Below, piece by piece: positions 1 through 19,184 of a DNA stretch of 32,000 bases. Below the pieces are notes generated by a model. It made no database searches, was not told the DNA's origin, and was given only the letters and a program-made list of their open reading frames with translations. How positions within the stretch are numbered: position 1 is the stretch's first letter; the number at the start of each line of letters is the position of its first letter. Position numbers and translations under genes: made by a program. Origin of the DNA: Candidatus Saccharimonadota bacterium (lineage in GTDB: Bacteria > Patescibacteriota > Saccharimonadia > Saccharimonadales > UBA4665); contig OY970350.1 of assembly GCA_963718045.1 (NCBI GenBank), forward strand, positions 630,001-662,000. The letters are read 5' to 3'.

Positions 1-150
1 GTTAGGTTACGGAATCATGCTCTTAAAGGTAAATATTTAGGTTACAGAAGTATTGATGTTATGGGTGACGTAAGAGCACTATACACAATAAAAGGAGACG
101 AGGTTATTATTTTTGGCTTTATTGGATCACATAGTCGGCTGTATGGTTAG
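1..150 (+). CDS. YafQ/RelE-family type II toxin (mRNA interferase), C-terminal fragment; the 5' end lies outside the window
   Basis: Frame 1 is open from base 1 to TAG at 148-150. It translates to VRLRNHALKGKYLGYRSIDVMGDVRALYTIKGDEVIIFGFIGSHSRLYG. This follows the C-terminal pattern of E. coli YafQ as I recall it (HPLxGxWKGYRxxHVxPDWxLIYKxxDxxLxxxRTGTHxxLFG). It is absent from the ORF track because the window edge truncates it. Confidence 0.6.
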   Translation, partial: VRLRNHALKGKYLGYRSIDVMGDVRALYTIKGDEVIIFGFIGSHSRLYG

Positions 151-665
151 CCTATTTTATTGTGTATGAAGTAGTAGCTTGAAGCAGTACTTGCAGGCAT
201 TATCCGCGTATCAACCTCGTCAAAACCAACTCTATTCATTTCTGAAATAGTCCAACTACCATTATCAGGATTGACACTCTCAACAAATGCCACGTGACCT
301 AGCCCGCCAGGTGCATTAACGTCAACCATGATTGCCGTGTAGCTTGGTGTTTGATCGACTAAATAACCGTCAGCTTGGGCTCTGACAGCCCAAGTTATGG
401 CGTTGCCCCAGGTATTAGGGATAGGCTCCCCTGCTTTTGCCCGAAGAAGTGACACCCAATAGGTACAGTTGCCGAATGCATAGTCATCATTAGCAGCTAA
501 TGGTCCTTCGTATAGATATATATCCATGTTTGGGCCAGAAGACGAGGAGCCAGCCAGAACAAGTAGATTAGTCAAAGAGGACAGTGTAATTATTGGCAGA
601 AGCAATAATGTGATAAGAACCGCTGCAGCTATACCGCTATATAACTTTATGTTACTTTTTAGCAT
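147..665 (-). CDS. CHAP-domain peptidoglycan hydrolase with an N-terminal membrane anchor or signal; VirB1/PrgK-type T4SS cell-wall hydrolase analogue
   Basis: ATG start. Hydrophobic N-terminus GIAAAVLITLLLLPIITL. CHAP catalytic motifs are present: Cys in FGNCTYWV, His in GHVAFVE, then ISEMN. It is the last gene of the T4SS cluster and overlaps the virB4 stop by 14 nt. Confidence 0.8.
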   Translation of the reverse strand: MLKSNIKLYSGIAAAVLITLLLLPIITLSSLTNLLVLAGSSSSGPNMDIYLYEGPLAANDDYAFGNCTYWVSLLRAKAGEPIPNTWGNAITWAVRAQADGYLVDQTPSYTAIMVDVNAPGGLGHVAFVESVNPDNGSWTISEMNRVGFDEVDTRIMPASTASSYYFIHNKIG

Positions 666-2367
666 ATAGCTCGCTAGGATCTGTTGTTATTAGCGGATGC
701 TCACTGTTTGATGCCACTATCTTAACCGCCACGTGCGTTTGGTCAACAATCATAAGACTGTCACCTCGTTCAGTTGTAAGCAGGTAATTTCTTTCAAATT
801 CGCTTAGATTAAACTCACTGACAACGTTCTTAATAGTTGTCGAATCCTGGCGCATTAAGATTCTAAGAGCACTTTGCGAAGCAATTGCCCGGCCGTATTT
901 ATTGTTTAAAAAGTCATTGGCTTGCTGGGATATGATTGATACGCCCAGGTAATATTTCCTCGCCCTCCTAACTAGACCGGCAATAAATCTGGCACTATCT
1001 TCATGTTCTAAAAGCAGCCAGCCTTCATCTATTATTAGAAGTCTCTTACTAGGTTCAGCTTTAATCTGATTGGATACAAAGTTAGCTATTATTAACATCA
1101 TCACTTGCCGCAAACTTTCCGGTATGTCCTTTATATCGAAAACAATTAGACGGTTAGTTAGTTTAATGTTCGTCGGTGAATTAAAGACTTCTGACATTGA
1201 GCCGTTGACGTACTTGTCCAGTCTCTCGGTTAATTTTGTTTGGCTTAGTTTTCCTAATTCGGTATATAGATCGCTAAGCAACGGCGCAGTTGACTGGTTT
1301 GTTTTTAGTACCGCTAAAAGTGCTTTGTCTACCATAGACCTTTCACGAGCTGAAAGACCTTCGGCAAGCAAAGATATTATGTCGGTGACGTTATCTATAT
1401 GCTCACTTTGCTGTTTTTTATTTAAGCTGGCTGCCAATGGGTCAAGCGGGTTAATTCTTTGTTTTGATCTTAAAGACAGTTTAATATATGTGCCCTTTAC
1501 CGACTGGCTGAGGTTTAGATATTCTCTTTCAGGATCAATGACTATTACTTTCGTACCATTAGTTAGCTGTCTTAATATTTCAACTTTAGTCAGATAGCTT
1601 TTACCGCTGCCTGATTGGGCAAAGACTATAGAATTAGCATTCGGCAAAGAGAAACGGTCAATAATAACCAGCGAATCGTTAGACTTATTTATACCAAACA
1701 ATATGCCGCTGGGCTGGACTAGTTCAGACGACATAAATGGAAATGTCAGAGCGGCAGATGAACTATCTAAGTTTCGTTTATATTCAAGTTCATCCGTTGC
1801 CCTGGGTAAGACTGATTGAAGGGCAGCTAATTGCTCGTACCTTGCTGGCTTAGTTAGGAATAGTCTTGAAGACATTGTCGATTCTAGCAGAGTGGTTATT
1901 CTGTCCAATTCACTTAGGTCTTTTGCTCTTAGGGCAACGTAAATACTTATTTGGAAAAGCTTCTCTTGTCCTCTTAAGATTTTGTCTCTTAGTTCAATGG
2001 CCGACTCTAGCGGATCGGTTATCTCCGAGCTTAGTATTCTGCCGGCCTTCATCATGGCTCTCTTGGTAGATTCAAGTTCGGTTATTTTTCGGTGTAGCTT
2101 AGGCAGAGCAAAAAGAGCAGATATTTCTTGAAGATGATAGCTGATATCTATGTTGTGGCTGAAATTAATTAGATTGTCTAACCAGCCACTACTGGCAACA
2201 TAGGGATAACCAGAGATAAATATTACTCTTACGAATTGCCCGTCAATGATTAAGTGATCTGGCAGTTCCTCAAGTCCGCTATATGAAAAATGGTCAACAA
2301 TCGTCTGTTCACCCAACCGGTATTTTAGTTCGTCAGGATTAATCTTTGGCTTTTTATGGTTAATCAT
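652..2367 (-). CDS. virB4: VirB4/TraE/PrgJ-family T4SS ATPase
   Basis: Walker A AQSGSGKSYLTK, Walker B RLLIIDEGW, and the conserved block DGQFVRVIFISGYPYVASSGWLDNL typical of VirB4-type ATPases. The track ORF starts at GTG 2376. I prefer ATG 2367 because GAAGG lies about 9 nt upstream and this start gives an ATGATTAA start/stop overlap with the upstream ORF. Confidence 0.85.
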   Translation of the reverse strand: MINHKKPKINPDELKYRLGEQTIVDHFSYSGLEELPDHLIIDGQFVRVIFISGYPYVASSGWLDNLINFSHNIDISYHLQEISALFALPKLHRKITELESTKRAMMKAGRILSSEITDPLESAIELRDKILRGQEKLFQISIYVALRAKDLSELDRITTLLESTMSSRLFLTKPARYEQLAALQSVLPRATDELEYKRNLDSSSAALTFPFMSSELVQPSGILFGINKSNDSLVIIDRFSLPNANSIVFAQSGSGKSYLTKVEILRQLTNGTKVIVIDPEREYLNLSQSVKGTYIKLSLRSKQRINPLDPLAASLNKKQQSEHIDNVTDIISLLAEGLSARERSMVDKALLAVLKTNQSTAPLLSDLYTELGKLSQTKLTERLDKYVNGSMSEVFNSPTNIKLTNRLIVFDIKDIPESLRQVMMLIIANFVSNQIKAEPSKRLLIIDEGWLLLEHEDSARFIAGLVRRARKYYLGVSIISQQANDFLNNKYGRAIASQSALRILMRQDSTTIKNVVSEFNLSEFERNYLLTTERGDSLMIVDQTHVAVKIVASNSEHPLITTDPSELYAKK

Positions 2368-2995
2368 CTTGCCCACCCTTCAGCACAAATTCTGAACCCA
2401 TAACATCTAGTGCTTTTTGGCTAAGTGGTTGGGTTTTTGACCTTTCCGGAGAGTAAAAACTGTAGAAGAGGTCAATTACTTCTATTGAACCCAGTTGCTT
2501 GGTGATAATGCCTAGTCTGCTTAAATTCTTGGACACTATATCCGCTCTTATGGACAATTGGTCTCGAATACTGGCTATACCTATGTTTTTTATATCGTCA
2601 TATGGAATGACTACATAAAACTGTCTGCTTAAGATTTTGTTAGAACTAATTAAAGTGGAAATGAACTTTCTATAGCTAATCAGCTGTGCTTTGTATATTT
2701 CTTCAGGCTCTTCGTCAAGCCGCAGATTTAATGAGTTTAGATAGTCATCAATATCTATTTCCCTAGTCCTTATTAGAAGCTGGATTGGAAATCCGATTGA
2801 GTTTAAGAAACTTTCAAAGGTATCTATTAGCGCGTCCTTTTCGTCTTCACTTTTTAGTTCAAAGTTAATTGAGCTGGTTGCCATCACTTGGCGGTACTTA
2901 TTATTAGACAGCTTCAATATGCCGCCTGAAATATCGCGAATATCTACCTGGGAAGAACTGCTTCCCTTCTTACCGAGAATAACTGACTTTAACAA
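2360..2995 (-). CDS. T4SS-associated protein, possibly a separately encoded VirB4 N-terminal domain
   Basis: TTG start preceded by a strong SD, AGGAGGA (3000-3006 on the plus strand), 4 nt upstream. The segment DIRDISGGILKLSNNKYRQVMATSSINFELKSEDEKDALIDTFESFLN resembles the extreme N-terminus of long monoderm VirB4 proteins, from memory. It sits between the PrgI-like gene and virB4. Confidence 0.5.
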   Translation of the reverse strand: MLKSVILGKKGSSSSQVDIRDISGGILKLSNNKYRQVMATSSINFELKSEDEKDALIDTFESFLNSIGFPIQLLIRTREIDIDDYLNSLNLRLDEEPEEIYKAQLISYRKFISTLISSNKILSRQFYVVIPYDDIKNIGIASIRDQLSIRADIVSKNLSRLGIITKQLGSIEVIDLFYSFYSPERSKTQPLSQKALDVMGSEFVLKGGQDD

Positions 2996-3458
2996 TTAAT
3001 CCTCCTGCTCTCTGATGAAAAGTTACGCTGTATTTCTGATCACTCAGCAACTTATGACCGATACCGCTGGACTTCATTTCTTGACGGGCTTCTTTGACTG
3101 TAAAAGTGTGTTTAGATCTCGGCTTTATAGGTTCAGAGATTTTTGTCAAAACATGGGTCAGTGGTTGTTTTTTGAAAACATAAACATGCGGACGAAGCTC
3201 ATATTTAGCTCTTAGTTTTAAGATATCTATAACTAAGTGGCTGTTTATTCTAAGTGCCAGTAAGGCGCATACTGCTGAAATGAAAATAATGAGTATTAGT
3301 TTATATATGGAAAATTTACCGAGAGGCGGCAAGATAAAGTAAATAACCGCGCTAATAAATATTGGTACGGCCAATAACAAAATTTGTGTCAGATTTAAGT
3401 TACCGGCTATCCGGTCTTCAACTGTCGTAATTTGAGCGGGTATGACTGAGACTCTCAT
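2970..3458 (-). CDS. PrgI-family / VirB3-like small T4SS membrane protein
   Basis: ATG overlaps the upstream stop (TAATG). N-terminal TTVEDRIAGNLNLTQILLL is followed by two hydrophobic helices. Its position between the VirB6-like gene and virB4 matches the PrgH-PrgI-PrgJ order of pCF10. Confidence 0.65.
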   Translation of the reverse strand: MRVSVIPAQITTVEDRIAGNLNLTQILLLAVPIFISAVIYFILPPLGKFSIYKLILIIFISAVCALLALRINSHLVIDILKLRAKYELRPHVYVFKKQPLTHVLTKISEPIKPRSKHTFTVKEARQEMKSSGIGHKLLSDQKYSVTFHQRAGGLIVKVSYSR

Positions 3459-4804
3459 TATTTAACCTCGCTCCTATTTGTCGGCATAGGCGACTCAGAA
3501 GGTTTCGTCTGGCCGGCTGACTTAGTTTCTGGTAAGTTGCTAAATTTAAGACTGTTTGAATTTGAATAATTACGGCCTCTAGTTCTTCCGGAATTAGTCG
3601 GCAAGTAGCTATTAATTGTATTGACTGCCTGGCTGCCAATATAGCTGGCGCCCATGACAATTCTCTCAGCGATTTGCCGTGACATTCTGGGGCCGATTGA
3701 GGCGTAAGATAACTGGTTCATTACTCCTTGTGTCTTTAAGAGAGCAACAAGTGTAGCCAGGCCGACAATCATGGCCATAAGCGGATCGGGTGTTTGATTT
3801 GTGCTAATAATGCCGGTTAGCAATGAGGCCGCTAATTCTAAAATGACGACATGGACGAATAGAACGAAGATAGCCGAGAAATACCGCTTACAAGCGGATA
3901 TGGCCATATCTCTTAAACCAGGCAGCAGCCAGCAAAGGATAACAATAGGAGCAAGAACTGCGCCAAGATAAATAGTTACAATACGGCCGACGTAAAAGAT
4001 TAGGAGAATTACACTGAAGACCAAGAAAATGGTCATAATAATCAGGGCAGCAAGGCCATAAGCAGATGGCTGTTTAACTACTTCGCTTAAAACGTTCCAG
4101 ACACTTTGGGCAGCATTATTATTGCTGATCGCTTTTATTAAAATATTAGACAGTCCAATCACGGCATCGATAATAAATATTGAGCTGTTAATGAACATAA
4201 AGGCGATAGATATCTGGGGCAGTAACTGTCTTATGTTTACTTCACCAATACCCAGACTATAAAAACCCATCACATGCAGACCGAGGAAGACTATACATAG
4301 CACCATCAGTGCATCAGCTATGCCGACACTGCTAACCCATAGGTTAAATACACTATGGTTGGCTGCCGCCAGTGGCGTACCAGACGTAAAATAGCTTAGA
4401 GCCTTTAGAAATGGTATGGCAACAGTCTCAACAATGGCACTCAGTACGCCTGTAATGGCTTTTATAATTACCGTGATTAGACCACCCGATGAGCTGGTTG
4501 GCTTAATGGCACTAAGACTTGGTACAATGCCATTTGTACCATTTACCGGTAAGGGCCCGTAGGCACTTTTTAAAAAGTTGCTGAGCAGAGCAGCAGCTAG
4601 GACAATCACTAATCCGATTAGAGCATTTTTGATAATCCTTTTAGCCCGAATTAGATTCTCAGGATTACCTGAGCTGGTTATATATTGATAACCGCCAATC
4701 ATAACAAAGAGGGCGCATATGATAGAGCTAAGTAAGCTTATTTCAGTAACTACCGGTGCGATTGATGAGCTGACTATGCTAGTTGCATCGGCAAAAAAGA
4801 ACAT
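3458..4804 (-). CDS. VirB6/TrbL-like polytopic T4SS channel protein with an N-terminal pilin-like module
   Basis: 448 aa with many hydrophobic helices and a polar Ser/Asn/Arg-rich C-terminal tail. The N-terminal 80 aa (GGYQYITSSGNPENLIRAKRIIKNALIGLVIVLAAALL) is a paralogue of the adjacent 116-aa pilin. It starts 2 nt after the pilin stop. Confidence 0.65.
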   Translation of the reverse strand: MFFFADATSIVSSSIAPVVTEISLLSSIICALFVMIGGYQYITSSGNPENLIRAKRIIKNALIGLVIVLAAALLSNFLKSAYGPLPVNGTNGIVPSLSAIKPTSSSGGLITVIIKAITGVLSAIVETVAIPFLKALSYFTSGTPLAAANHSVFNLWVSSVGIADALMVLCIVFLGLHVMGFYSLGIGEVNIRQLLPQISIAFMFINSSIFIIDAVIGLSNILIKAISNNNAAQSVWNVLSEVVKQPSAYGLAALIIMTIFLVFSVILLIFYVGRIVTIYLGAVLAPIVILCWLLPGLRDMAISACKRYFSAIFVLFVHVVILELAASLLTGIISTNQTPDPLMAMIVGLATLVALLKTQGVMNQLSYASIGPRMSRQIAERIVMGASYIGSQAVNTINSYLPTNSGRTRGRNYSNSNSLKFSNLPETKSAGQTKPSESPMPTNRSEVK

Positions 4805-4806
4805 GT

Positions 4807-5157
4807 CTAGCTCCCAAATGCATTAGAGGCTAAGTTACCTACTATGTCAGACAAAACAAAGGCAGCAATAGTGATGGCCAGCCCAATAGCTGAGAATAGT
4901 ATTGTTCTCTTTGCCTTTTCAAGCCTCTGCGGATTTCCTGAGCTAGTAATATAACTGAAGCCGCCTACTACAAAAAAGCCTGTGGCGACAAGGCCAGCCA
5001 GTCCAGCTAGGGCCTCAATGACAGTTTTAATAAAGTTAGAAACTTGAGAAACATCGGCTGTCGCCGAATCTGCGTAGGAGGTAGAGAGCACTACATACGG
5101 CGACAGCACGATCAAAAATGAAAAGTATTTTAATATCAGTCGTTTATAGTCAGCCAT
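4807..5157 (-). CDS. T4SS pilin (VirB2/TrbC-like; CPR/monoderm T4SS pilin type)
   Basis: 116 aa with a signal-like N-terminus (FSFLIVLSPYVVLSTSYA) followed by two hydrophobic helices. The helices flank the loop YITSSGNPQRLEKAKRT, giving VirB2-like topology. It is the first gene of the cluster. Confidence 0.65.
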   Translation of the reverse strand: MADYKRLILKYFSFLIVLSPYVVLSTSYADSATADVSQVSNFIKTVIEALAGLAGLVATGFFVVGGFSYITSSGNPQRLEKAKRTILFSAIGLAITIAAFVLSDIVGNLASNAFGS

Positions 5158-5161
5158 CCAA

Positions 5162-5185
5162 ATGTCCTATTAAGGCTAAGGACAT
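5162..5185 (-). promoter_or_regulatory. 5'-UTR hairpin overlapping the Shine-Dalgarno sequence of the T4SS pilin gene
   Basis: The minus strand reads ATGTCCT-TAGCCTTAAT-AGGACAT-TTGG-ATG. This is a perfect 7-bp inverted repeat, and its 3' arm contains the only SD-like AGGA, 7 nt from the ATG. Confidence 0.3.
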
Positions 5186-5354
5186 CATAAAAAGCCAGCT
5201 GCAGCATAACATTCTTAAGCAATTAGTAATTATTAAAGAAGATTAAATAGCTAAAATTACTATCCGTTATCTGTTGTGTTTATGTCTTCAGGTTTTTATT
5301 TAATAAAGATTAAACTCTAGCCGCCAATATATATCGAAAAACTGTAAGTTGAAT

Positions 5355-11532: not shown

Positions 11533-12054
11533 CTAGCGAGTTACGCTGATGGATGCGCCTTGTTCTGCGCATGGTGCAGTAACGGTTATGCGAGGAGTAG
11601 TGGTGCTGGTCTCTTGTATTAAGTAACCAGTGGTTGCGGCACTGTAATTATATGTAGTGCCACTCAAAGTACAACTAGCCCCCGAGGTCCAGGATGGGTC
11701 TGAAGGGATAGCTGTCAGGTACGTACCGTTGGCCGATAAAGCAGATAGATCGACGTTGCTTGTTGGACATGTTGGGTTAGTACCAGTGTCACTAGACGCA
11801 CATATCGGTTCCAAAGTTGTGGTTATGGGGTTGGCTGTCGTGCTTGGCAGTGCTCCCTTATTGTCTATTTCGTACTGATATACAGCATCTAAAATGGTTG
11901 TTACGTTCTCGTCTCTTTGAGCGTTACGAGTGTCGGCTAGCTGTTTTGCCGGGTTAACTGCTAATATTACTACTCCTGCTAGTATGGCGATAATAGCCAC
12001 GACTAGCAAAACTTCGATAAGCGTAAAGCCTTCGTTTTTTAATTGTCTATACAT
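11533..12054 (-). CDS. pilA: Type IV pilin (prepilin-type N-terminal cleavage/methylation domain); candidate major pilin
   Basis: N-terminus MYRQLKNEG/FTLIEVLLVVAIIAILAGVVILAVNP has the class III signal, with Gly at -1, Phe at +1 and Glu at +5. It is 173 aa, has two Cys pairs in the C-terminal half, and has its own upstream intergenic region with a good SD (AAAGGG). Confidence 0.85.
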   Translation of the reverse strand: MYRQLKNEGFTLIEVLLVVAIIAILAGVVILAVNPAKQLADTRNAQRDENVTTILDAVYQYEIDNKGALPSTTANPITTTLEPICASSDTGTNPTCPTSNVDLSALSANGTYLTAIPSDPSWTSGASCTLSGTTYNYSAATTGYLIQETSTTTPRITVTAPCAEQGASISVTR

Positions 12055-12072
12055 TGGTGCCCTTTATATATA

Positions 12073-12099
12073 GTTATATTTATTAAGATTACTGGTCAA
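12073..12099 (-). promoter_or_regulatory. Putative sigma70-type promoter for the pilin gene
   Basis: The minus strand reads TTGACC (12094-12099), a 15-nt spacer, then TATAAC (12073-12078), with further TATATA immediately downstream. The spacing is suboptimal. Confidence 0.3.
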
Positions 12100-12172
12100 T
12101 AATACTACTAAGCATAAGCGCTTGCAAGCATTTGCTAGGGGTCTAACGAACACTTTAACGGGTGAAGGCTAA

Positions 12173-12910
12173 CTAATCTATGGCTCCGGTTGGGACGGGG
12201 TTGCCTGGAGGCAGATTAGAAGTGTTTGATCCTTTAGAGGGATTGCTTGTGCTGCTACCGGACGTATTAGAGGCATTATTGGTTGCCGAATTAGATGTCG
12301 GCGTCAATAAGCCTACCGGCACGACTATAACGGTTGTAACTTGGCCGCCATTATTAAATCCGATGCTGATTACTTCACCGTTAGATGATTCACCAACTAT
12401 ATTAGTACCGCTTAATTCCTGGCCATAAGGTCCTGTCTGCCAGGCCGATATATTTGATTCGGACAGATGAAAGTTCCAGGGGTTTTTGGCGCTCTCAATA
12501 GCACTGTCTATGAGCGAGGCTGCTTGTTTGCAGCTGATCGTTTCATTCACGCCTGACTCAACGATCTCGACATGGACTTTCGGTGCACAGTAAGAGCCAA
12601 GTATAGATAGGTTCTTATTAGCTACACCGGTTGTCAGAGCATTATAGGCTGAAGTTGATATGGTCGTATTGGTCTTTGAGGCTGCTGTTAGGTTAGAACC
12701 GGATTCAGTTTGAGACGACTTATGTGTACTGCCAAAAAAAATTATACCAATCAGTATACCGATGGCAATAAGGACCAATGCACCGCCTATTAGAGCCAAT
12801 GCCTGTTTACTGTTTATGCTTTTTATCTGGTTAGACGACGACCGGACAGATTTAATAGGTCTGCCTAGCTGCTGCTTTATGTTTGATTGTGAAATTTTAT
12901 ATCTGTCCAT
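12173..12910 (-). CDS. Hypothetical N-terminally anchored protein with Ser/Thr/Asn-rich segments; last gene of the pilus operon
   Basis: It has a single TM helix (ALALIGGALVLIAIGILIGIIFF), a small Cys-containing domain and a C-terminal tail NSATNNASNTSGSSTSNPSKGSNTS. The track start is TTG 12919; I prefer ATG 12910. I recognise no family. Confidence 0.45.
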   Translation of the reverse strand: MDRYKISQSNIKQQLGRPIKSVRSSSNQIKSINSKQALALIGGALVLIAIGILIGIIFFGSTHKSSQTESGSNLTAASKTNTTISTSAYNALTTGVANKNLSILGSYCAPKVHVEIVESGVNETISCKQAASLIDSAIESAKNPWNFHLSESNISAWQTGPYGQELSGTNIVGESSNGEVISIGFNNGGQVTTVIVVPVGLLTPTSNSATNNASNTSGSSTSNPSKGSNTSNLPPGNPVPTGAID

Positions 12911-12929
12911 AATATGCAAGTATATTGGC

Positions 12930-13349
12930 TTAAGGGGTATCCTGCCAACTGCTAATGATAATAGACGGTGAGGTCTGGGATGTTTTAACGGTTAGATTAT
13001 GGGAAAGTGTATTAGTGCCTTCGACATACGTACCGGTAGCGGTAATTACGTAGCTGGGTGAGCTGCCGCTTATGCTGTATGTACATGTATCCGATGCCGC
13101 AAGGGTTGATGAGCCGTTATTTGGAGTAGTTAAGGTTGGATTAGCCTGAAGAGCTGCTAGAGCCAGTTCGGCGCAGCCGGTGGCTGCAGCTTTGGCATCG
13201 ACGCCGCCATCGGTCGCTTGAGCAGTTATGCTGGTATTTGAGCCGGTTAGAAGCAAAAATACGGCAATCGTAGCCATTACTATGCCTAGTATAAGAACAG
13301 TGATCAGGACTATGTAGCCGCCGTTTGATTTGTTAATCGGTTTACTCAT
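12930..13349 (-). CDS. PilX-N-like minor pilus protein (no Glu5)
   Basis: N-terminal NGGYIVLITVLILGIVMATIAVFLLL resembles the PilX N-terminal domain. It overlaps the preceding minor pilin gene by ATGA. Confidence 0.5.
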   Translation of the reverse strand: MSKPINKSNGGYIVLITVLILGIVMATIAVFLLLTGSNTSITAQATDGGVDAKAAATGCAELALAALQANPTLTTPNNGSSTLAASDTCTYSISGSSPSYVITATGTYVEGTNTLSHNLTVKTSQTSPSIIISSWQDTP

Positions 13350-13879
13350 TGGGGTATGCTGGCTGCTCCATAAAAAGTATTTTGGTAAGTAAACTCTTCC
13401 AAAGTCGAAGTGCTCTTATATGAAAGAGAGAAGCTGATTTGAATTGAGCCATTGGTACCGCTTAGTCCTTCGTTTGTAAAGCTTAAGTTAGATATGCTGA
13501 CATGCGAATTGGTCAGATAGGTATTAACCGACGGACTGCCCTGACTAATTTCCAGGTGATTAGTCGAGCCGTCGTTATATGTACTAAAAATAGTCGGGTT
13601 GACAGAGGTCTGCGGCATATTAAGTTCGATAGCACTGGCCGCAACGCCGCTATTAGGTGAGGCAATACTGCTGGCTTCATGAATATCCTGCTCGATTATC
13701 TCCATGGCGGCTTCACCTTGGTAATTGACAGCCGTAAAGACTTCATTTTTCTGACGCTCAGCAATTGAATTAATAGCCAGAGCCACAATGACCATAATAA
13801 TAGATGAAAAAATAGCAATGTACAGTAACACCTCAATAAGTGTAAAACCGCTGTTATTATTGTTATGTTTCATTTTCAT
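13346..13879 (-). CDS. Prepilin-type minor pilin
   Basis: NNSG/FTLIEVLLYIAIFSSIIMVIVAL class III signal. The track ORF extends to 13939, but ATG 13879 (MKMKHNNNNSGFTLIE) gives a normal short leader and lies 4 nt after the upstream stop. Confidence 0.75.
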   Translation of the reverse strand: MKMKHNNNNSGFTLIEVLLYIAIFSSIIMVIVALAINSIAERQKNEVFTAVNYQGEAAMEIIEQDIHEASSIASPNSGVAASAIELNMPQTSVNPTIFSTYNDGSTNHLEISQGSPSVNTYLTNSHVSISNLSFTNEGLSGTNGSIQISFSLSYKSTSTLEEFTYQNTFYGAASIPQ

Positions 13880-13883
13880 AGCT

Positions 13884-15659
13884 TTACTGATCCCATGCAA
13901 AATCAAACCATTTAGAATCAATGCTTGGACCGTCGGCATTATGGATAGTCCAGGCGAAGTCTGTCGGTGTAGTGTAGTAACTGTTGTTCGTAGCGTTATA
14001 CATGATCGAATAGAGATTGTCGTTGCCGTCGATCATTAATACCATGGCATCGTTAGAGCCAGGTTCAGGTATGATATGGGTTTTATATATAGTAGTTGAG
14101 GCATTTGGTGCGGCCAGCGAAGTCGATTCCCAGGTATTAGTTGACGAGTTAAATGTTTTAAGCTGTGTCGAAGAGGTATCGTTGGAGTAAGCAATTAAAC
14201 CAGTCGTACCAGATAGCAAGCCGTAGGCTAAGTCAGCGCTCTGCTGTTCGCCGTCATTACCATTTGAAGCCACAGTTTGATTTGTCGGGTTACTGACACC
14301 GCTAGGTTTTAGCGTATAGCAATAAATATGCTGGGTTGATAGATTGTCTTTGTCGCAGCCGATCCATTCCTCACTTGCTAGAGGCTGAGCGATAATGTTA
14401 TCGGTTACTGATTGTGACCCGCTTGGCTGGGCCGTGGTCGATATAGTGGAACCCCAGCTGCCTGATCCTTTGCCATTATCGGTGAAGATACTGAATTGAA
14501 GCGATTGATCAGTTGCGCTATTAGTAAATACGGCTGCACCCTGAAGTGTATTGACTGGACTCCAGGCAAAATCGACGTTTTTAGTACTGCCGGATGTACC
14601 GCTGGCAGCTAGGGTCGTATTGGCTGACCAGCTGGTACCGTTATAGAAGCTGGCAACTGTTTCGCTGTCTGCGCCAAGCATCACTACCATCGCTTCATTA
14701 GCTCCGGGACGAGCTTCGACTATCATCGACTCCGGATAGTCATTCTTATCTGAACTAATAGCCGAAAGAGCACCCTGGGTACTCCAGGTGGTACCAGTCC
14801 AGGTATTGTATTTGGGCGTGTTGGTATTGTCGTCATAGACGGCCACAAAGGTACCATTAGCCATGTAGCTGCCGCTAAAGTTACCGCTAGCGTCAAAGCC
14901 TGAGCTAGACCAGGATGTCAGCAGCTGGACATTGCCCCAGCTGGTACCATTCCAAACCATGCCGTACAGATACTGTTTAGACGAATCATACAGCCTGGCC
15001 AGCATTACCTTGTCGTCACCTGTCTGAGCCGGATAAAGTTTGACTGATTCGGCAACTTCGTTATCTGTCTTAGGATCAAAGGCCGGCAGCGGCGATGGAT
15101 TGGTCCAAGTTCCGGTTGATTGCAGCAGCTGGTAATCTATAAGCTCTTTGTTGTCGCCGCCGTTAGCGTAAACCAGCAAACCAGTACGTGTTTGAACTGG
15201 GTTTGTGGTACCAGCCGACCAGTTGGACATATATGTTGTTGCTGACAGTAAACCGTTGCGGGTAATATCCTCTTTCCAGGTGACAGTTACGGTAACCTGA
15301 CGGCTATCGCTGATTGGGCCAGCTGAAAAGACTACGGCTGGTGTATAAATGCCGTTTATTAAAGTTGGCGAGGAGGAAAGCGACCACTGAGTGCCGGTCT
15401 GCTGCAGGTAATAAGTAGTGCCGTTAGTATAGTTGCTTAAGTTTAAATAGTTGCTGTCAGATATGTTATGGACCGCTTCAATGGATTCATTAACAATCTC
15501 AGAAGCTATCATATTATTTCCAGAAACCACTGTAGCGTCCCGTCCGTAAATAAAAGCAGATAAGGCTACAAAGGCCAGCATGGCAAAAATAGCAATTGCC
15601 AGTATTATCTCAATCAGCAGGAAACCCTTTTGGTCTGTCGGCTTCAAATTAACCTTCAT
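13884..15659 (-). CDS. Large prepilin-type protein: minor-pilin N-terminal domain fused to a ~430-aa repeat (beta-propeller-like) domain; candidate pilus tip adhesin
   Basis: DQKG/FLLIEIILAIAIFAML class III signal, then a pseudopilin-like block ending RQVTVTVTWKE. Seven or eight repeats follow, each a hydrophobic strand plus an xGTxW motif (detailed in the findings). It overlaps the upstream gene by ATGA. Confidence 0.7.
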   Translation of the reverse strand: MKVNLKPTDQKGFLLIEIILAIAIFAMLAFVALSAFIYGRDATVVSGNNMIASEIVNESIEAVHNISDSNYLNLSNYTNGTTYYLQQTGTQWSLSSSPTLINGIYTPAVVFSAGPISDSRQVTVTVTWKEDITRNGLLSATTYMSNWSAGTTNPVQTRTGLLVYANGGDNKELIDYQLLQSTGTWTNPSPLPAFDPKTDNEVAESVKLYPAQTGDDKVMLARLYDSSKQYLYGMVWNGTSWGNVQLLTSWSSSGFDASGNFSGSYMANGTFVAVYDDNTNTPKYNTWTGTTWSTQGALSAISSDKNDYPESMIVEARPGANEAMVVMLGADSETVASFYNGTSWSANTTLAASGTSGSTKNVDFAWSPVNTLQGAAVFTNSATDQSLQFSIFTDNGKGSGSWGSTISTTAQPSGSQSVTDNIIAQPLASEEWIGCDKDNLSTQHIYCYTLKPSGVSNPTNQTVASNGNDGEQQSADLAYGLLSGTTGLIAYSNDTSSTQLKTFNSSTNTWESTSLAAPNASTTIYKTHIIPEPGSNDAMVLMIDGNDNLYSIMYNATNNSYYTTPTDFAWTIHNADGPSIDSKWFDFAWDQ

Positions 15660-16120
15660 GAGTAATCCACCATCCCCATAGAATTAATGGTTACTACTAT
15701 TGAGTTACTGTTATCTTTTAAAGTGAAGGTCCCAGTAGTTGAAGGAAAGCCGTAAAGTTTAGAAAAGTCCACTTCGGATGGCCCGCTGACAGTTATACTA
15801 ACCGGCATGGTAAAAACATTGGCTGTGCTAGTATTCCTGGTAGCATAGCTGCTGCCGGCGTATAAGGTAATTGTTTGATTGGTAATATATACGCCGTAGG
15901 AAGAGCTATTTTCTTCGCTGCGGCTTAATATCTGGGCCTGGTATAAGTCCTGGACTAAGGTATTGACAGTGACGTCAAGTCCATTGCTGTTTTGAAGGTT
16001 ACTATAAACCGGCAAGGCAAAAACAGCCAGAACGGCAATTATACCGACTACCACAACTTCTTCAATAAGGGTATAGCCAGCCTGTCCTAATGACCCGAGG
16101 CCAAGTATCTTATGTCTCAT
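15656..16120 (-). CDS. Prepilin-type minor pilin (FimT/GspH-like)
   Basis: GQAG/YTLIEEVVVVGIIAVLAVFALPVY class III signal. It is 154 aa and overlaps the pilC stop by TAATG. Confidence 0.75.
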   Translation of the reverse strand: MRHKILGLGSLGQAGYTLIEEVVVVGIIAVLAVFALPVYSNLQNSNGLDVTVNTLVQDLYQAQILSRSEENSSSYGVYITNQTITLYAGSSYATRNTSTANVFTMPVSITVSGPSEVDFSKLYGFPSTTGTFTLKDNSNSIVVTINSMGMVDYS

Positions 16121-17403
16121 TATCCGCTCGGTTGGGTGTTAAACTGCCCTATCAACGAATAGATTGGCAAAAAGACAGCCAGAGCCACAAATAGTACTGC
16201 TACAGCAATTACAATCAGTACCACCGGTTCTAGTAAGGTCTCCAGATTCTTAGCCGTTATATCGGCTTTTTCCTGATAATTATCGCCAATTTTAAGCAGG
16301 CTTTTATCTAAGTTACCGGATTTTTCAGCGCTAATTATTATCTGGCAGACTGTTCCAGATAATAACTTCCGATTTTCAGGTCTTTGCAGAATTCTGGTAA
16401 AAGAACTGCCTTCGTCTACTTCATCATAAAGTTTGCTTGAAAACATCTTGTAGCGAGCGGTAGACATTGAGCTGACTAAAGATTGAAGAGCAGTAATTAC
16501 CGGCAAACCGGCTTCCAGCATTGAACCCAATATGAATCCGAACCTGGCAACTTCGGTCTGGAAGAGCAAAGTTTTAATTCCAGGTAAGTGAAAGATTATG
16601 ACTTCACTGGCTGCTCTTACCTTCTGATTTAGTTTAACGGCCACGTATAAAGCGGCCACAAGTAGCACAATCAGTCCTGCCAGCAGCAGTCCGTAGTGGC
16701 CGAAAAACCTGCCGAATATCATTAGGCCATCGGTAATTGGGCCAACCTTTTCATGAAGCGATTGAATAACTGTCATTAATTTTGGTAAAAGAAACACACC
16801 GATTCCGGTACCTACTACAAATAGCAGGCTGACTAAAACTGACGGATAGAGCATGGCCGATCTAATTCGGGCGCTCATTTCGTTATTTTTATGCATTTGC
16901 ACAGCAACAACCTTAAGATTTTGCGGTAAGCGGCCGGTTGATTCACCAACCTCGATTAAAGTTACCACTGACGGATTAAACAGGCCGGTTTGGGCAATGG
17001 CCTCTGAAAACGGCACTCCGTCATCAACTTCAGTCCTTACCTTTAGAAGCGCTTTTTTAACAGATTTACGAGTTATTTCGGCAGTGATGGATTCCAAAGC
17101 TTCGCCAATGCTGACACCGGCTGGTAAGAGCATGCTAAGACCGTCCATAAAGTACTCGGCAGTATCCCGGTCAATGCCGCCAAATATCTTTTGTTTGGGC
17201 CTAGGTTTGGTTTTTTTTGGTGGGGGCGGTTTATCTAGTAGTTCGGGATTAGATTGTGAATTTTCAGTGCTTAGCTTAATGGCTGGTAAACCGGTGTTAG
17301 CCTGGGGCGTGCTTACTGGCTGCTTTGGTGTAATAGGCGGATTGACTATAGCCTGTGTGCTGCCTCTTGAAGGCAAATTGTCTGTTGTCTTATTGTTTTC
17401 CAA
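16120..17403 (-). CDS. pilC: Type IV pilus platform protein PilC (GspF family)
   Basis: There are two GspF-type repeats (LSMLLPAGVSIGEALESI and LGSMLEAGLPVITALQSL) and three TM helices. TTG start lies 3 nt after the pilB stop. A ~75-aa Pro/Lys-rich N-terminal extension (KPPPPKKTKPRPKQK) makes the start uncertain. Confidence 0.85.
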   Translation of the reverse strand: MENNKTTDNLPSRGSTQAIVNPPITPKQPVSTPQANTGLPAIKLSTENSQSNPELLDKPPPPKKTKPRPKQKIFGGIDRDTAEYFMDGLSMLLPAGVSIGEALESITAEITRKSVKKALLKVRTEVDDGVPFSEAIAQTGLFNPSVVTLIEVGESTGRLPQNLKVVAVQMHKNNEMSARIRSAMLYPSVLVSLLFVVGTGIGVFLLPKLMTVIQSLHEKVGPITDGLMIFGRFFGHYGLLLAGLIVLLVAALYVAVKLNQKVRAASEVIIFHLPGIKTLLFQTEVARFGFILGSMLEAGLPVITALQSLVSSMSTARYKMFSSKLYDEVDEGSSFTRILQRPENRKLLSGTVCQIIISAEKSGNLDKSLLKIGDNYQEKADITAKNLETLLEPVVLIVIAVAVLFVALAVFLPIYSLIGQFNTQPSG

Positions 17404-17406
17404 GGT

Positions 17407-19110
17407 TTATTTGGGCTCCGCTACCCGTTGAAGTTCTTCTAAGGTAGTAACACCTGATTCGACCTTATCGATACCGTCAGAGAACATATTGTGATCACCT
17501 TGAGCCCTGGACAGCTGTTCGATCTGATTAGTTGATGGGTTAGTTAAGATCAGTTCCTTCATTTGGGGCGTAATGTTTACCAGCTCGAAGATAGCAGTAC
17601 GTCCGTGGTAGCCGGTAAAGTTGCAGCCTTCGCATCCCTGGCCGCGGTAGAGAGTGACATTTGGTCCCTTAAAGTATTTCTCAGGATCGGGCAGCGTTCT
17701 TCCAATTTGATCAAGCGGTACGATAAAACTTGCCCGGCAAGCTTCATGGATCATCCGGACTAATCTTTGGGCGATAACCAGATTTAAGGTGCTGGCCAGC
17801 AAAAAGGGTTCAACTCCCATATCCAGCAGTCTGGGAATAGCCGAAGCGGCGTCATTGGCGTGGAGCGTTGAAAACAGCAGGTGACCGGTTAGGGCAGCAT
17901 TAACTGCCAGCTCGGCAGTCTCGTTATCTCTTATTTCACCGACTAGTATAACGTCCGGGTCTTGGCGGACCATTGATTTAAGCCCTTCTGAAAACGTTAA
18001 CTTAGTTTGAACGTTAACCTGAATCTGGTTGACGCCCAAGATCTTATATTCGACTGGATCTTCGATGGTCGTGACGTTAATTTCGGGATTGTTAATGAGC
18101 TTTAGAAGAGAGTAAAGAGTGGTTGTCTTGCCGGAGCCGGTCGGTCCGGTAGTGATTATCATGCCGTAAGGACGGTGAATCTGGTGGTCGAAAATCTGAC
18201 GGTCGCGGGCAGACAGGCCAAGACTTTTAACGTTTAAACCTCTTGAGTATTCGGCCAGCAAGCGCAGGGCTACTTTTTCACCGTCAAGTGTTGGTATGAT
18301 CGATATTCTGACGTTGACCGGTTTGCCGTCAACATCGTATCTAATGGCTCCATCCTGGCTCATATTGTGTTCGTCTATCCGCATATGAGCCTGGACTTTT
18401 AAGCGATTTAAGATGGTCTCATAATACTGTTTTTGGAGCTGGCCGGCTTCATGAAGCAGTCCGTCAATACGAAAACGGATTAACACTAAGTCTTCCATCG
18501 GTTCAAAGTGGATGTCTGAAACTTTGTAAGCTGTAGCGTCCTTGATAATTTCGTCAATAATTTCTGGAGCAACCCGATCTTGTTCTTGGATTATCTGGTT
18601 AAAGCGAGTGGCTAGCGGTTTACGGTAGTGGACCAGCGATTCATTTAAATCATCGGGCAGGGCATAACTGATACGCACTTCGTGGCCTGGAAAGATTTTG
18701 GCTAGAGCCTCATTCAGGCCGGCTTTTTTAGGGTTATCTGTAGCAACAGTGATCTGATTATCATTTATTTTATAGACAACTACCCTGAACTCCTGGCCGA
18801 TGTCGGGAGGGATCATATTAATATGCTCTTTGCTCGGCTGATAGATACCCAGATCGGCTGATTCTACTCCGTAATACTGAGCCAAAGCGTGTCCCAGCAT
18901 GTCGTAAGCAACAATGTTTTGATTGAGCAGATAATCGAATAGACTGATGTGATGAGAGGCTATGTAGTTTTCGGCTTTTTCGATGCCCTTTTGGTCTAGA
19001 AACTGACCATTAAGCAAGATTGTCTTTAATAATTGCTCATCGTACAATCCGGAATCTTGGGTCGGAGTTGCTGGCTGTGCTGCTTGATTTTGATTTGTTT
19101 GTTCGTCCAT
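17407..19110 (-). CDS. pilB: Type IV pilus assembly ATPase PilB (GspE family)
   Basis: Walker A GPTGSGKTTTLY, Asp box VTTIEDPVEY, Walker B DPDVILVGEIRD, His box GHLLFSTLHAND and CEGC. The track start is TTG 19131; I prefer the first ATG at 19110 (MDEQTN...). Confidence 0.9.
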   Translation of the reverse strand: MDEQTNQNQAAQPATPTQDSGLYDEQLLKTILLNGQFLDQKGIEKAENYIASHHISLFDYLLNQNIVAYDMLGHALAQYYGVESADLGIYQPSKEHINMIPPDIGQEFRVVVYKINDNQITVATDNPKKAGLNEALAKIFPGHEVRISYALPDDLNESLVHYRKPLATRFNQIIQEQDRVAPEIIDEIIKDATAYKVSDIHFEPMEDLVLIRFRIDGLLHEAGQLQKQYYETILNRLKVQAHMRIDEHNMSQDGAIRYDVDGKPVNVRISIIPTLDGEKVALRLLAEYSRGLNVKSLGLSARDRQIFDHQIHRPYGMIITTGPTGSGKTTTLYSLLKLINNPEINVTTIEDPVEYKILGVNQIQVNVQTKLTFSEGLKSMVRQDPDVILVGEIRDNETAELAVNAALTGHLLFSTLHANDAASAIPRLLDMGVEPFLLASTLNLVIAQRLVRMIHEACRASFIVPLDQIGRTLPDPEKYFKGPNVTLYRGQGCEGCNFTGYHGRTAIFELVNITPQMKELILTNPSTNQIEQLSRAQGDHNMFSDGIDKVESGVTTLEELQRVAEPK

Positions 19111-19184
19111 AAACCGGGTTTCTCTTTTCAATATAAAGCTATGCCCATGCTCATGCTTAATATTCTCATCTATCTACTTCTTTT

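Follow-up and report, generated by a model that had tools for sequence, protein, structure and literature searches.

What is a type IV secretion system (T4SS) for, when neither a coupling protein nor a relaxase is encoded beside it? A six-gene cluster on the minus strand of a Candidatus Saccharimonadota genome raises this question. The cluster occupies positions 147-5157 of a 32,000-nt stretch of contig OY970350.1 (assembly GCA_963718045.1, positions 630,001 to 662,000), and this whole stretch is referred to below as the window. We read the locus, with a probability of roughly 0.75, as the chromosomal, vertically inherited T4SS of an uncultured Saccharimonadales bacterium, a system of the Patescibacteria clade derived from the monoderm MPF_FATA class and serving host contact as opposed to relaxase-dependent conjugation.

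Few machines have been shown to be indispensable for the epibiotic life of Saccharibacteria, and the T4SS is among them. Transposon sequencing in Southlakia epibionticum ML1 showed that its T4SS locus and pilins are essential for epibiotic growth (Wang et al. 2023, PMC10633639), in keeping with the importance that a preliminary description of the window, made from its letters alone, had attached to such genes. Both the T4SS and the type IV pilus machine are essential in that strain. No recognisable coupling or relaxase proteins were found in the ML1 T4SS, for which protein export or an alternative role was suggested (PMC10633639). A survey of 3,035 Patescibacteria genomes then described a VirB4 clade that is monophyletic and lies within MPF_FATA, with TrsD, PrgI, VirB6 and VirB2-like pilins encoded near virB4 and VirB8 almost absent (Quinonero-Coronel et al. 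2025, PMC12102498). In that survey TrsD is the commonest virB4 partner, KsgA is often nearby and relaxases occur in only 103 of the 3,035 genomes. A 2025 review (PMC12857230) restates points of both studies. The system type is already published, and the preliminary observation, with its proposal of a non-conjugative role that agrees with the published view (PMC12102498, PMC10633639), rediscovers known biology. The locus is no new kind of system; what it adds is modest, namely a clean split of VirB4, a conserved pilin-VirB6 fusion and the coexistence of paralogous clusters.

Six genes in one tightly packed operon

All six consecutive minus-strand genes of the preliminary description are present as open reading frames (ORFs). 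In order of transcription they encode a VirB2-like T4SS pilin (4807-5157; 116 aa), a pilin-VirB6 fusion (3458-4804; 448 aa), a PrgI/VirB3-like small membrane protein (2970-3458; 162 aa), a TrsD/TraC-like protein with a TTG start (2360-2995; 211 aa), a VirB4 ATPase (652-2367 from an ATG, 571 aa, or 652-2376 from a GTG, 574 aa) and a CHAP peptidoglycan hydrolase (147-665; 172 aa). Searches with Pfam and NCBIfam profile hidden Markov models uphold the CHAP, VirB4, PrgI, TrbL/VirB6 and T4SS_pilin assignments. The junctions read from the sequence are those reported before: a 2-nt gap between pilin and pilin-VirB6 genes, a 1-nt overlap (TAATG) in which the PrgI ATG is shared with the upstream stop, a 26-nt overlap between the PrgI gene and the 211-aa ORF, an 8-nt overlap (ATGATTAA) between this ORF and VirB4, and a 14-nt overlap between VirB4 and CHAP genes. 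The 211-aa ORF has a strong AGGAGG motif in front of its TTG start. L016 and L011, two orthologous loci, have equally tight junctions. In compact genomes of this group genes often overlap, and such junctions are by themselves not unusual; gene content and junctions taken together support the view of one tightly packed operon for a monoderm-type T4SS core.

The AT-rich region upstream of the pilin gene (5158-5354, minus strand) may hold a promoter or regulatory site. When five orthologous upstream regions, one from each lineage, were aligned, a block, TTTAATAAT..TGCTTA.G.ATG, proved to be conserved about 60-85 nt 5′ of the pilin start codon, as did a second, AT-rich block farther upstream. The first block may be a promoter or operator. 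A scan for consensus sigma-70 promoters stayed at chance level (15 sites versus 17.7 expected) and did not pick out the block, and a terminator scan found no minus-strand terminator 3′ of the CHAP gene.

A full-length VirB4 in two polypeptides

The 571-aa ATPase scores 331.2 bits against NCBIfam NF045971, the CD1110-family VirB4 profile (cut-off 325), over profile positions 202-733 of 752, and matches the VirB4 profile of mycoplasma integrative and conjugative elements (ICEs), NF045975, at positions 280-890. Pfam P-loop_TraG and AAA_10 are matched as well, the C-terminal domain matches the VirB4 structure PDB 4AG5 (E = 2.4e-30), and the Walker A (AQSGSGKS) and Walker B (LLIIDE) motifs are both intact, all of which bears out the VirB4 assignment. 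What this protein lacks is the first ~200 positions of full-length VirB4 profiles. The 211-aa ORF aligns to positions 12-173 of NF045971 and 120-283 of NF045975. Because the two proteins cover consecutive parts of two full-length VirB4 profiles, they together constitute one full-length VirB4 delivered as two polypeptides.

The 211-aa ORF, which the preliminary description had left unassigned, is thus the detached, TrsD-like N-terminal domain of VirB4. It matches the TrsD/TraD family NF041427 (E = 1.4e-6), and PF26593 (TraC-like) is its precomputed Pfam assignment; a direct local Pfam search with the window's own protein returned no match. Among its 2,101 homologues, the 120 listed are all 174-219 aa long, that is, stand-alone proteins, and nearly all of those with a named source come from Saccharimonadales or Saccharibacteria. 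They carry precomputed PF26593 and some also PF11130 (TraC_F_IV), the N-terminal domain of the F-plasmid VirB4 homologue, a family matched by 20 of 42 aligned homologues. For an AlphaFold model of the ORF (pLDDT 68.6), the top 14 Foldseek matches are all R388 TrwK/VirB4. A sequence search of the PDB gave chance matches only, so that the identity came from profiles and predicted fold. Hydropathy analysis placed no hydrophobic membrane segment in either this protein, which is soluble, or VirB4.

We also considered whether the ORF might be a duplicated copy of the ATPase's own N-terminal region. This was ruled out: hhalign finds no similarity between the two (probability 0.4%), which identifies the ORF as the missing N-terminal domain and not a copy. 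Since the ORF is TrsD-like, the gene order, previously likened to PrgH-PrgI-PrgJ-PrgK of pCF10, fits TrsC-TrsD-TrsE of pGO1 better than PrgI-PrgJ. In both pGO1 and the window a TrsD-like gene lies between the VirB3-like gene and VirB4, with the split falling as in TrsD/TrsE.

Pilin, pilin-VirB6 fusion, PrgI and CHAP

The claim of a VirB2-like pilin holds for the 116-aa protein, which reaches 44.5 bits against Pfam T4SS_pilin (cut-off 26.6) and 42.9 bits against NCBIfam NF045849, the Mbov_0395-family pilin-like conjugal transfer protein (cut-off 40). Hydropathy divides it into three hydrophobic segments, a signal-peptide-like segment and a two-helix hydrophobic hairpin. In the survey PMC12102498, MPF_FATA systems are taken to lack VirB2-like pilins, and co-option from other T4SS classes is considered possible. 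The match to NF045849 suggests that MPF_FATA systems may themselves already include a pilin-like component, and the kinship of the pilin to a mycoplasma ICE family bears on this published idea of co-option.

The following gene had been described simply as VirB6-like. Its TrbL/VirB6 part is borne out (TrbL, 28.7 bits, cut-off 25.9, with a precomputed TrbL_3 match as well), although a plain VirB6 is not what it encodes: the N-terminus of the 448-aa protein is itself a T4SS_pilin domain (41.4 bits, E = 1.5e-10) with a VirB2-like hairpin at about residues 16-78. The protein is polytopic by hydropathy, with about 8-10 hydrophobic segments. Among the best 120 of its 845 homologues, most are 435-515 aa long and carry PF18895 and PF19590, the pilin and TrbL families. 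Because most of them carry both, the pilin-VirB6 fusion is, by its distribution among homologues, the usual architecture of this group and no artefact, and the VirB6-fused pilin domain extends across hundreds of homologues. In the particular case of one near-identical assembly (L001, 5558-7208), single-base deletions at the equivalents of window positions 4411, 5134 and 5196-5197 split the pilin-VirB6 gene into 132 and 282 aa and shorten the pilin gene. As all of them lie at short homopolymers, they are probably errors of long-read assembly, though they could conceivably be real strain-level frameshifts.

The PrgI/VirB3-like assignment is upheld by Pfam PrgI at 29.2 bits (cut-off 27) over residues 6-92 in a protein with two transmembrane helices by hydropathy. 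The CHAP hydrolase is equally secure: Pfam CHAP gives 57.3 bits, NCBIfam amidase and PcsB-type hydrolase domains also match, and the cysteine (NCTYW) and histidine (GHVAF) motifs are intact behind a single N-terminal transmembrane anchor. It is predicted to be a membrane-anchored peptidoglycan hydrolase in a VirB1/PrgK-like role.

Coupling protein, relaxase and oriT

Profile searches of window ORFs of at least 90 aa, several of which match no family, detected no type IV coupling protein (T4CP), relaxase or VirB8 family. For VirB8 and for VirB7, VirB9 and VirB10, nothing was found in these ORFs or in the flanking loci with sequence profiles, no structure-based search for VirB8 having been made. 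Searches for repeats and inverted repeats yielded nothing resembling an oriT. The absence of VirD4, relaxase, VirB8-like gene and oriT from the window, as first described, is accordingly confirmed within the reach of these searches. A VirD4 and relaxase pair immediately beyond the left window edge had been named as a finding that would overturn this picture. The 10 kb to the left were read from public contigs encoding an identical CHAP protein, and they contain neither a T4CP nor a relaxase; they hold RelB/YafQ and housekeeping genes, in the order RelB/YafQ, a small ORF, pyruvate kinase (PK), phosphoglycerate kinase (PGK), triose-phosphate isomerase (TIM), UvrD, a DUF348/G5 protein and KsgA.

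A T4CP-bearing paralogue on a matching contig

Extending the search beyond the window changes the picture for the coupling protein. Over 14.8 kb the window is 99.98% identical to contig_22346 of ena:ERZ25039519 (832,233 bp), in which the six-gene cluster lies at ~612.5-617.5 kb. About 140 kb away on this contig, at ~757-765 kb, is a second cluster (L008) with pilin, pilin-VirB6, PrgI, TrsD-like, VirB4 and CHAP genes, followed by a gene for a 902-aa T4CP-like protein. In its VirB6 gene the public gene call starts late; translation from an in-frame ATG farther upstream brings the pilin domain back. Pfam scores of the 902-aa protein exceed the cut-offs for TrwB_AAD_bind (30.9 bits versus 20.5) and TraG-D_C (25.2 versus 22), and it also matches TraD and CD1115-type VirD4 families; a PDB sequence search with it gave no match. 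It has at least 1,675 homologues, mostly 814-902 aa long, of which few have a named source, mostly Saccharimonadales. The earlier statement that there is no coupling protein is therefore true of the window cluster in cis only and not of the genome, which, judged by these profile matches, is not T4CP-free.

The paralogous type shares the same six genes in the same order, split VirB4 and pilin-VirB6 fusion included, and adds as a seventh gene the 814-902-aa T4CP-like ATPase directly after CHAP. It is common among the other Saccharimonadia loci examined (L013, L021, L022, L024, L025 and L027, and L015 too), and neighbour-joining trees place the six-gene type of the window in a clade of its own. 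Between L008 and the window cluster, protein identities range over 47-72%, with the VirB4 pair at 72% and the membrane and partner-contact parts at only 47-56%; so weak a likeness of the membrane parts speaks for two machines insulated from each other. In a binned metagenome-assembled genome (MAG), GCA_054610135.1, both cluster types are likewise present, each on a contig of its own.

A third cluster (L007), at 1-9 kb of contig_22346, is a decayed copy of the T4CP type. Its TrsD is split into 83 and 130 aa, its VirB4 into 355 and 148 aa, with a dCMP deaminase gene lying between the fragments, and its T4CP breaks off at 564 aa. Because the L007 proteins are 64-94% identical to those of L008, the two suggest a fairly recent duplication within the genome. 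Multi-copy genomes are otherwise uncommon, given 2,425 Patescibacteria-clade VirB4 proteins in 2,407 assemblies (PMC12102498). No relaxase family was found in ~20 kb around either L007 or L008, and none of the three T4SS clusters has a tRNA gene nearby.

The flanks of the T4CP type are variable, and in L008 they contain insertion sequences, toxin-antitoxin genes and retroelement genes. Just upstream of the L008 cluster (L008 1592-9144) lie genes for an RVT_1 reverse transcriptase, a bAvd accessory protein and an Lcl_C-domain protein, and the same stretch has two DDE transposase genes, a HicB-like antitoxin gene and a Phd-like/PIN gene pair. This region looks like a diversity-generating retroelement in mobile-element-rich surroundings. 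After the L008 cluster, the opposite strand carries a small ORF and a gene for a PLDc_2 nuclease; the pair is seen again in L013 and L015 and often accompanies this cluster type.

Conservation, selection and inheritance

The six-gene cluster is syntenic in the five other Saccharimonadia lineages examined. Four of them (L016, L011/L012, L017 and L018) have the same six genes in the same neighbourhood, with the GT2 and LPG-synthase-family genes on one side and PK-PGK-TIM-UvrD on the other, at VirB4 identities to the window of 95% for L016 and 77-79% for the rest. The most distant, L033 (59%), has the same six genes and the same neighbours, rearranged by inversion. The idea that the T4CP-less type is a rare derived form was dropped, as this distant genome has it in the same neighbourhood; the scan of reference genomes comprised 15 loci and is no census of the two cluster types.

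Relative to L016, dN/dS is 0.04-0.14 across the six genes, with the pilin at 0.04, compared to 0.09-0.10 for the adjacent PK, PGK and TIM genes. As judged from these ratios, the six-gene locus is under purifying selection. This is the only indication, and an indirect one, of its importance in the organism of the window; essentiality was shown in S. epibionticum ML1. With a GC content of 0.409 in the cluster and 0.415 in the window, a conserved housekeeping context in five lineages and no tRNA gene, the locus bears none of the signs expected of a mobile element. So far as comparative sequence data can tell, it is a functional, vertically inherited chromosomal locus, and neither a recent mobile acquisition nor a remnant.

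The closest relatives found for its VirB4 are from Saccharimonadia/Patescibacteria, except for two short contigs from MAGs labelled as a proteobacterium and as Oscillospiraceae. The best reference profile for this VirB4 is the MPF_FATA one (CD1110), an assignment by profile and not by a tree with references of the MPF classes.

Comparison with known systems

The nearest described systems are the Patescibacteria-clade T4SSs of S. epibionticum ML1 (SEML1_0006-0019) and Nanosynbacter lyticus TM7x. Shared with them are VirB4, a TrsD homologue, PrgI/VirB3, VirB6 and a VirB2-like pilin, as well as a peptidase after virB4, a chromosomal site and KsgA nearby, and these systems likewise have no VirB8, relaxase or T4CP next to virB4. 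The window differs from ML1 in having one free pilin plus a pilin domain fused to VirB6, whereas ML1 has a six-pilin array. As far as is visible, the window cluster is not near dnaA, and it coexists with the second, T4CP-bearing paralogue.

With the MPF_FATA systems of monoderms (C. difficile CTn2 with CD1110, pGO1 trs, pCF10 prgH-prgK) the cluster has in common a CD1110-family VirB4, PrgI, a VirB6-like protein and CHAP, and neither has an outer-membrane core. Unlike them, it lacks a relaxase, a T4CP in cis, a VirB8-like PrgL/TraM and a surface adhesin, and no lytic transglycosylase domain accompanies CHAP in its small hydrolase. It has the VirB2-like pilins that MPF_FATA is said to lack, and it is chromosomal and syntenic and not carried by a mobile element. 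Kinship to the T4SS of mycoplasma ICEs (Mbov_0395; VirB4 Mbov_0397) is seen in the pilin, which passes NF045849, and in the TrsD-like protein and VirB4, which tile NF045975; however, the VirB4 match of 262 bits lies below the equivalog cut-off of 590. The mycoplasma VirB4 is a single protein of 894 positions, and its element is a mobile ICE with DNA-processing genes of its own. Bordetella Ptl, Brucella VirB and Helicobacter ComB also work without a dedicated coupling protein or relaxase (PMC12102498, PMC12857230), but all three belong to diderms and have VirB7/9/10 cores; their substrates are known (toxin, effectors and incoming DNA), and no specific sequence kinship links them to the window cluster.

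Proposed role and rival explanations

By homology to VirB/Trw and Gram-positive systems, the cluster would work as follows. The CHAP enzyme would open the peptidoglycan locally, and PrgI, the VirB6 domain and the TrsD-like protein would anchor a VirB4 hexamer at the membrane. VirB4 would extract (dislocate) pilin from the membrane and power the assembly of a short pilus or channel, which would be used at the contact with the host bacterium, for adhesion or for passing protein or other substrates, and not for relaxase-dependent conjugation. VirD4 is dispensable for pilus biogenesis in Agrobacterium, so a cluster without a T4CP would be expected to build such a structure alone.

Several points weigh against this account of a host-contact T4SS. 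The mechanism is carried over from homologous systems, and membership in the Patescibacteria clade is assigned by profile. A T4CP-like ATPase is encoded on the same contig beside the paralogous cluster and could be used in trans. The link between window and paralogue consists of one metagenomic contig (the 99.98% match over 14.8 kb) and one binned MAG. The relaxase search covered the window, 10 kb to its left and ~20 kb around the paralogous clusters, which is a part of the genome only, and DNA transfer through an unrecognised relaxase is conceivable.

One rival explanation is a working machine for conjugation or DNA export that borrows the T4CP-like ATPase of the paralogue in trans and an unrecognised relaxase from elsewhere. 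The T4CP-like gene is indeed there, with its TrwB_AAD_bind, TraG-D_C, TraD and CD1115-type VirD4 matches, the VirB4 proteins of the window and L008 are 72% identical, and T4CP genes of other systems often lie far from virB4 (PMC12102498). In Patescibacteria, too, T4CP homologues are common and rarely near virB4 (PMC12102498). The survey nevertheless finds relaxases to be rare in these bacteria, and the distant T4CP homologue of ML1 is not essential (PMC12102498). For the clusters at hand, the window and the ~20 kb around each of the three show no relaxase family, no inverted repeat suggests an oriT, the neighbourhood is stable and of housekeeping type with no marks of a mobile element, and the likely partner-contact parts, at 47-56% identity, speak against shared components. 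We consider conjugation quite unlikely. Unlikely, too, is an importer of DNA or nutrients that would feed a cell unable to make nucleotides, in the manner of the T4CP-less Helicobacter ComB or the archaeal Ced system. Helicobacter ComB has no T4CP or relaxase, a gene content that the window cluster resembles, and the VirB4 ATPase weakly matches CedD, a DNA-translocating ATPase, at 26 bits; that score is far below the cut-off, and the match reflects nonspecific P-loop similarity. The group does have minimal biosynthetic capacity (PMC10633639), yet DNA uptake in S. epibionticum proceeds via type IV pili and ComEC (PMC12857230), and the window itself carries a type IV pilus cluster. Deletion of comEC in S. 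epibionticum abolished competence and not viability (PMC12857230), so ComEC-dependent DNA uptake leaves the essentiality of the ML1 T4SS unexplained.

A third possibility, that the cluster is a redundant, decaying duplicate of the T4CP-bearing one that lost its T4CP and its function, is hardly credible. Three clusters in the genome, one of them (L007) clearly decayed, and the frameshifts of the L001 assembly in the pilin and VirB6 genes might be cited for it, but the L001 indels sit at short homopolymers as is typical of long-read assembly errors, and the six ORFs of the window are intact, with their catalytic motifs, at dN/dS of 0.04-0.14. Architecture and location are also conserved down to 59% VirB4 identity.

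Within the preferred reading as a host-contact T4SS, one further hypothesis can be put forward tentatively, and we hold it to be possible more than probable. Members of this Saccharimonadia lineage may keep two insulated T4SSs in a genome of ~0.83 Mb, one an ancient, syntenic, T4CP-independent six-gene machine for pilus formation or host contact, the other its T4CP-coupled seven-gene paralogue, which stands in variable, mobile-rich contexts, duplicates, decays and may still move DNA or proteins. If true, the structural and substrate-recruiting roles of a T4SS would here be naturally divided between two machines, which would offer a clue to the essential T4SS function in Saccharibacteria. The presence of T4CP-less and T4CP-bearing clusters in one tiny genome offers, in any case, a natural comparison for asking which functions need the coupling protein.

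Boundaries and neighbouring genes

The operon is bounded as the preliminary description had it, by a glycosylation-type gene upstream and a convergent toxin gene downstream. Upstream lies a gene for an LPG_synthase_TM-family membrane protein and, beyond it, a GT2 glycosyltransferase gene. In L016 (6578-7681), L017 (5580-6680) and L018 (5565-6665) an extra Mannosyl_trans2-family gene stands between the LPG_synthase_TM and pilin genes; it is missing from the window and from L011. Downstream, a RelB/YafQ-type toxin-antitoxin pair on the plus strand (window 1-150, continuing left; L009 14655-15208) converges on the operon, with a 4-nt overlap between the stop of the YafQ-family toxin gene and that of CHAP. 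The toxin gene has a terminator-like hairpin (137-152, plus strand) that spans the end of the CHAP gene. The pair occurs only in the window's own lineage and, because it is absent from the orthologous L016, L011, L017 and L018, is a lineage-specific insertion.

The remaining 27 kb of the window contain glycosylation and lipid genes, the type IV pilus cluster, a histidine kinase gene and metabolic genes. The type IV pilus cluster (11533-19131) starts 6.4 kb from the T4SS operon and encodes a PilB-like T2SSE ATPase (17407-19131), a PilC-like T2SSF protein (16120-17403) and two pilin-type proteins with the Pfam N_methyl motif (11533-12054 and 13346-13939). A further member of this cluster is a 591-aa protein (13884-15659), whose pilin-type N-terminal signature comes from weak, sub-cutoff matches to NCBIfam minor-pilin families.

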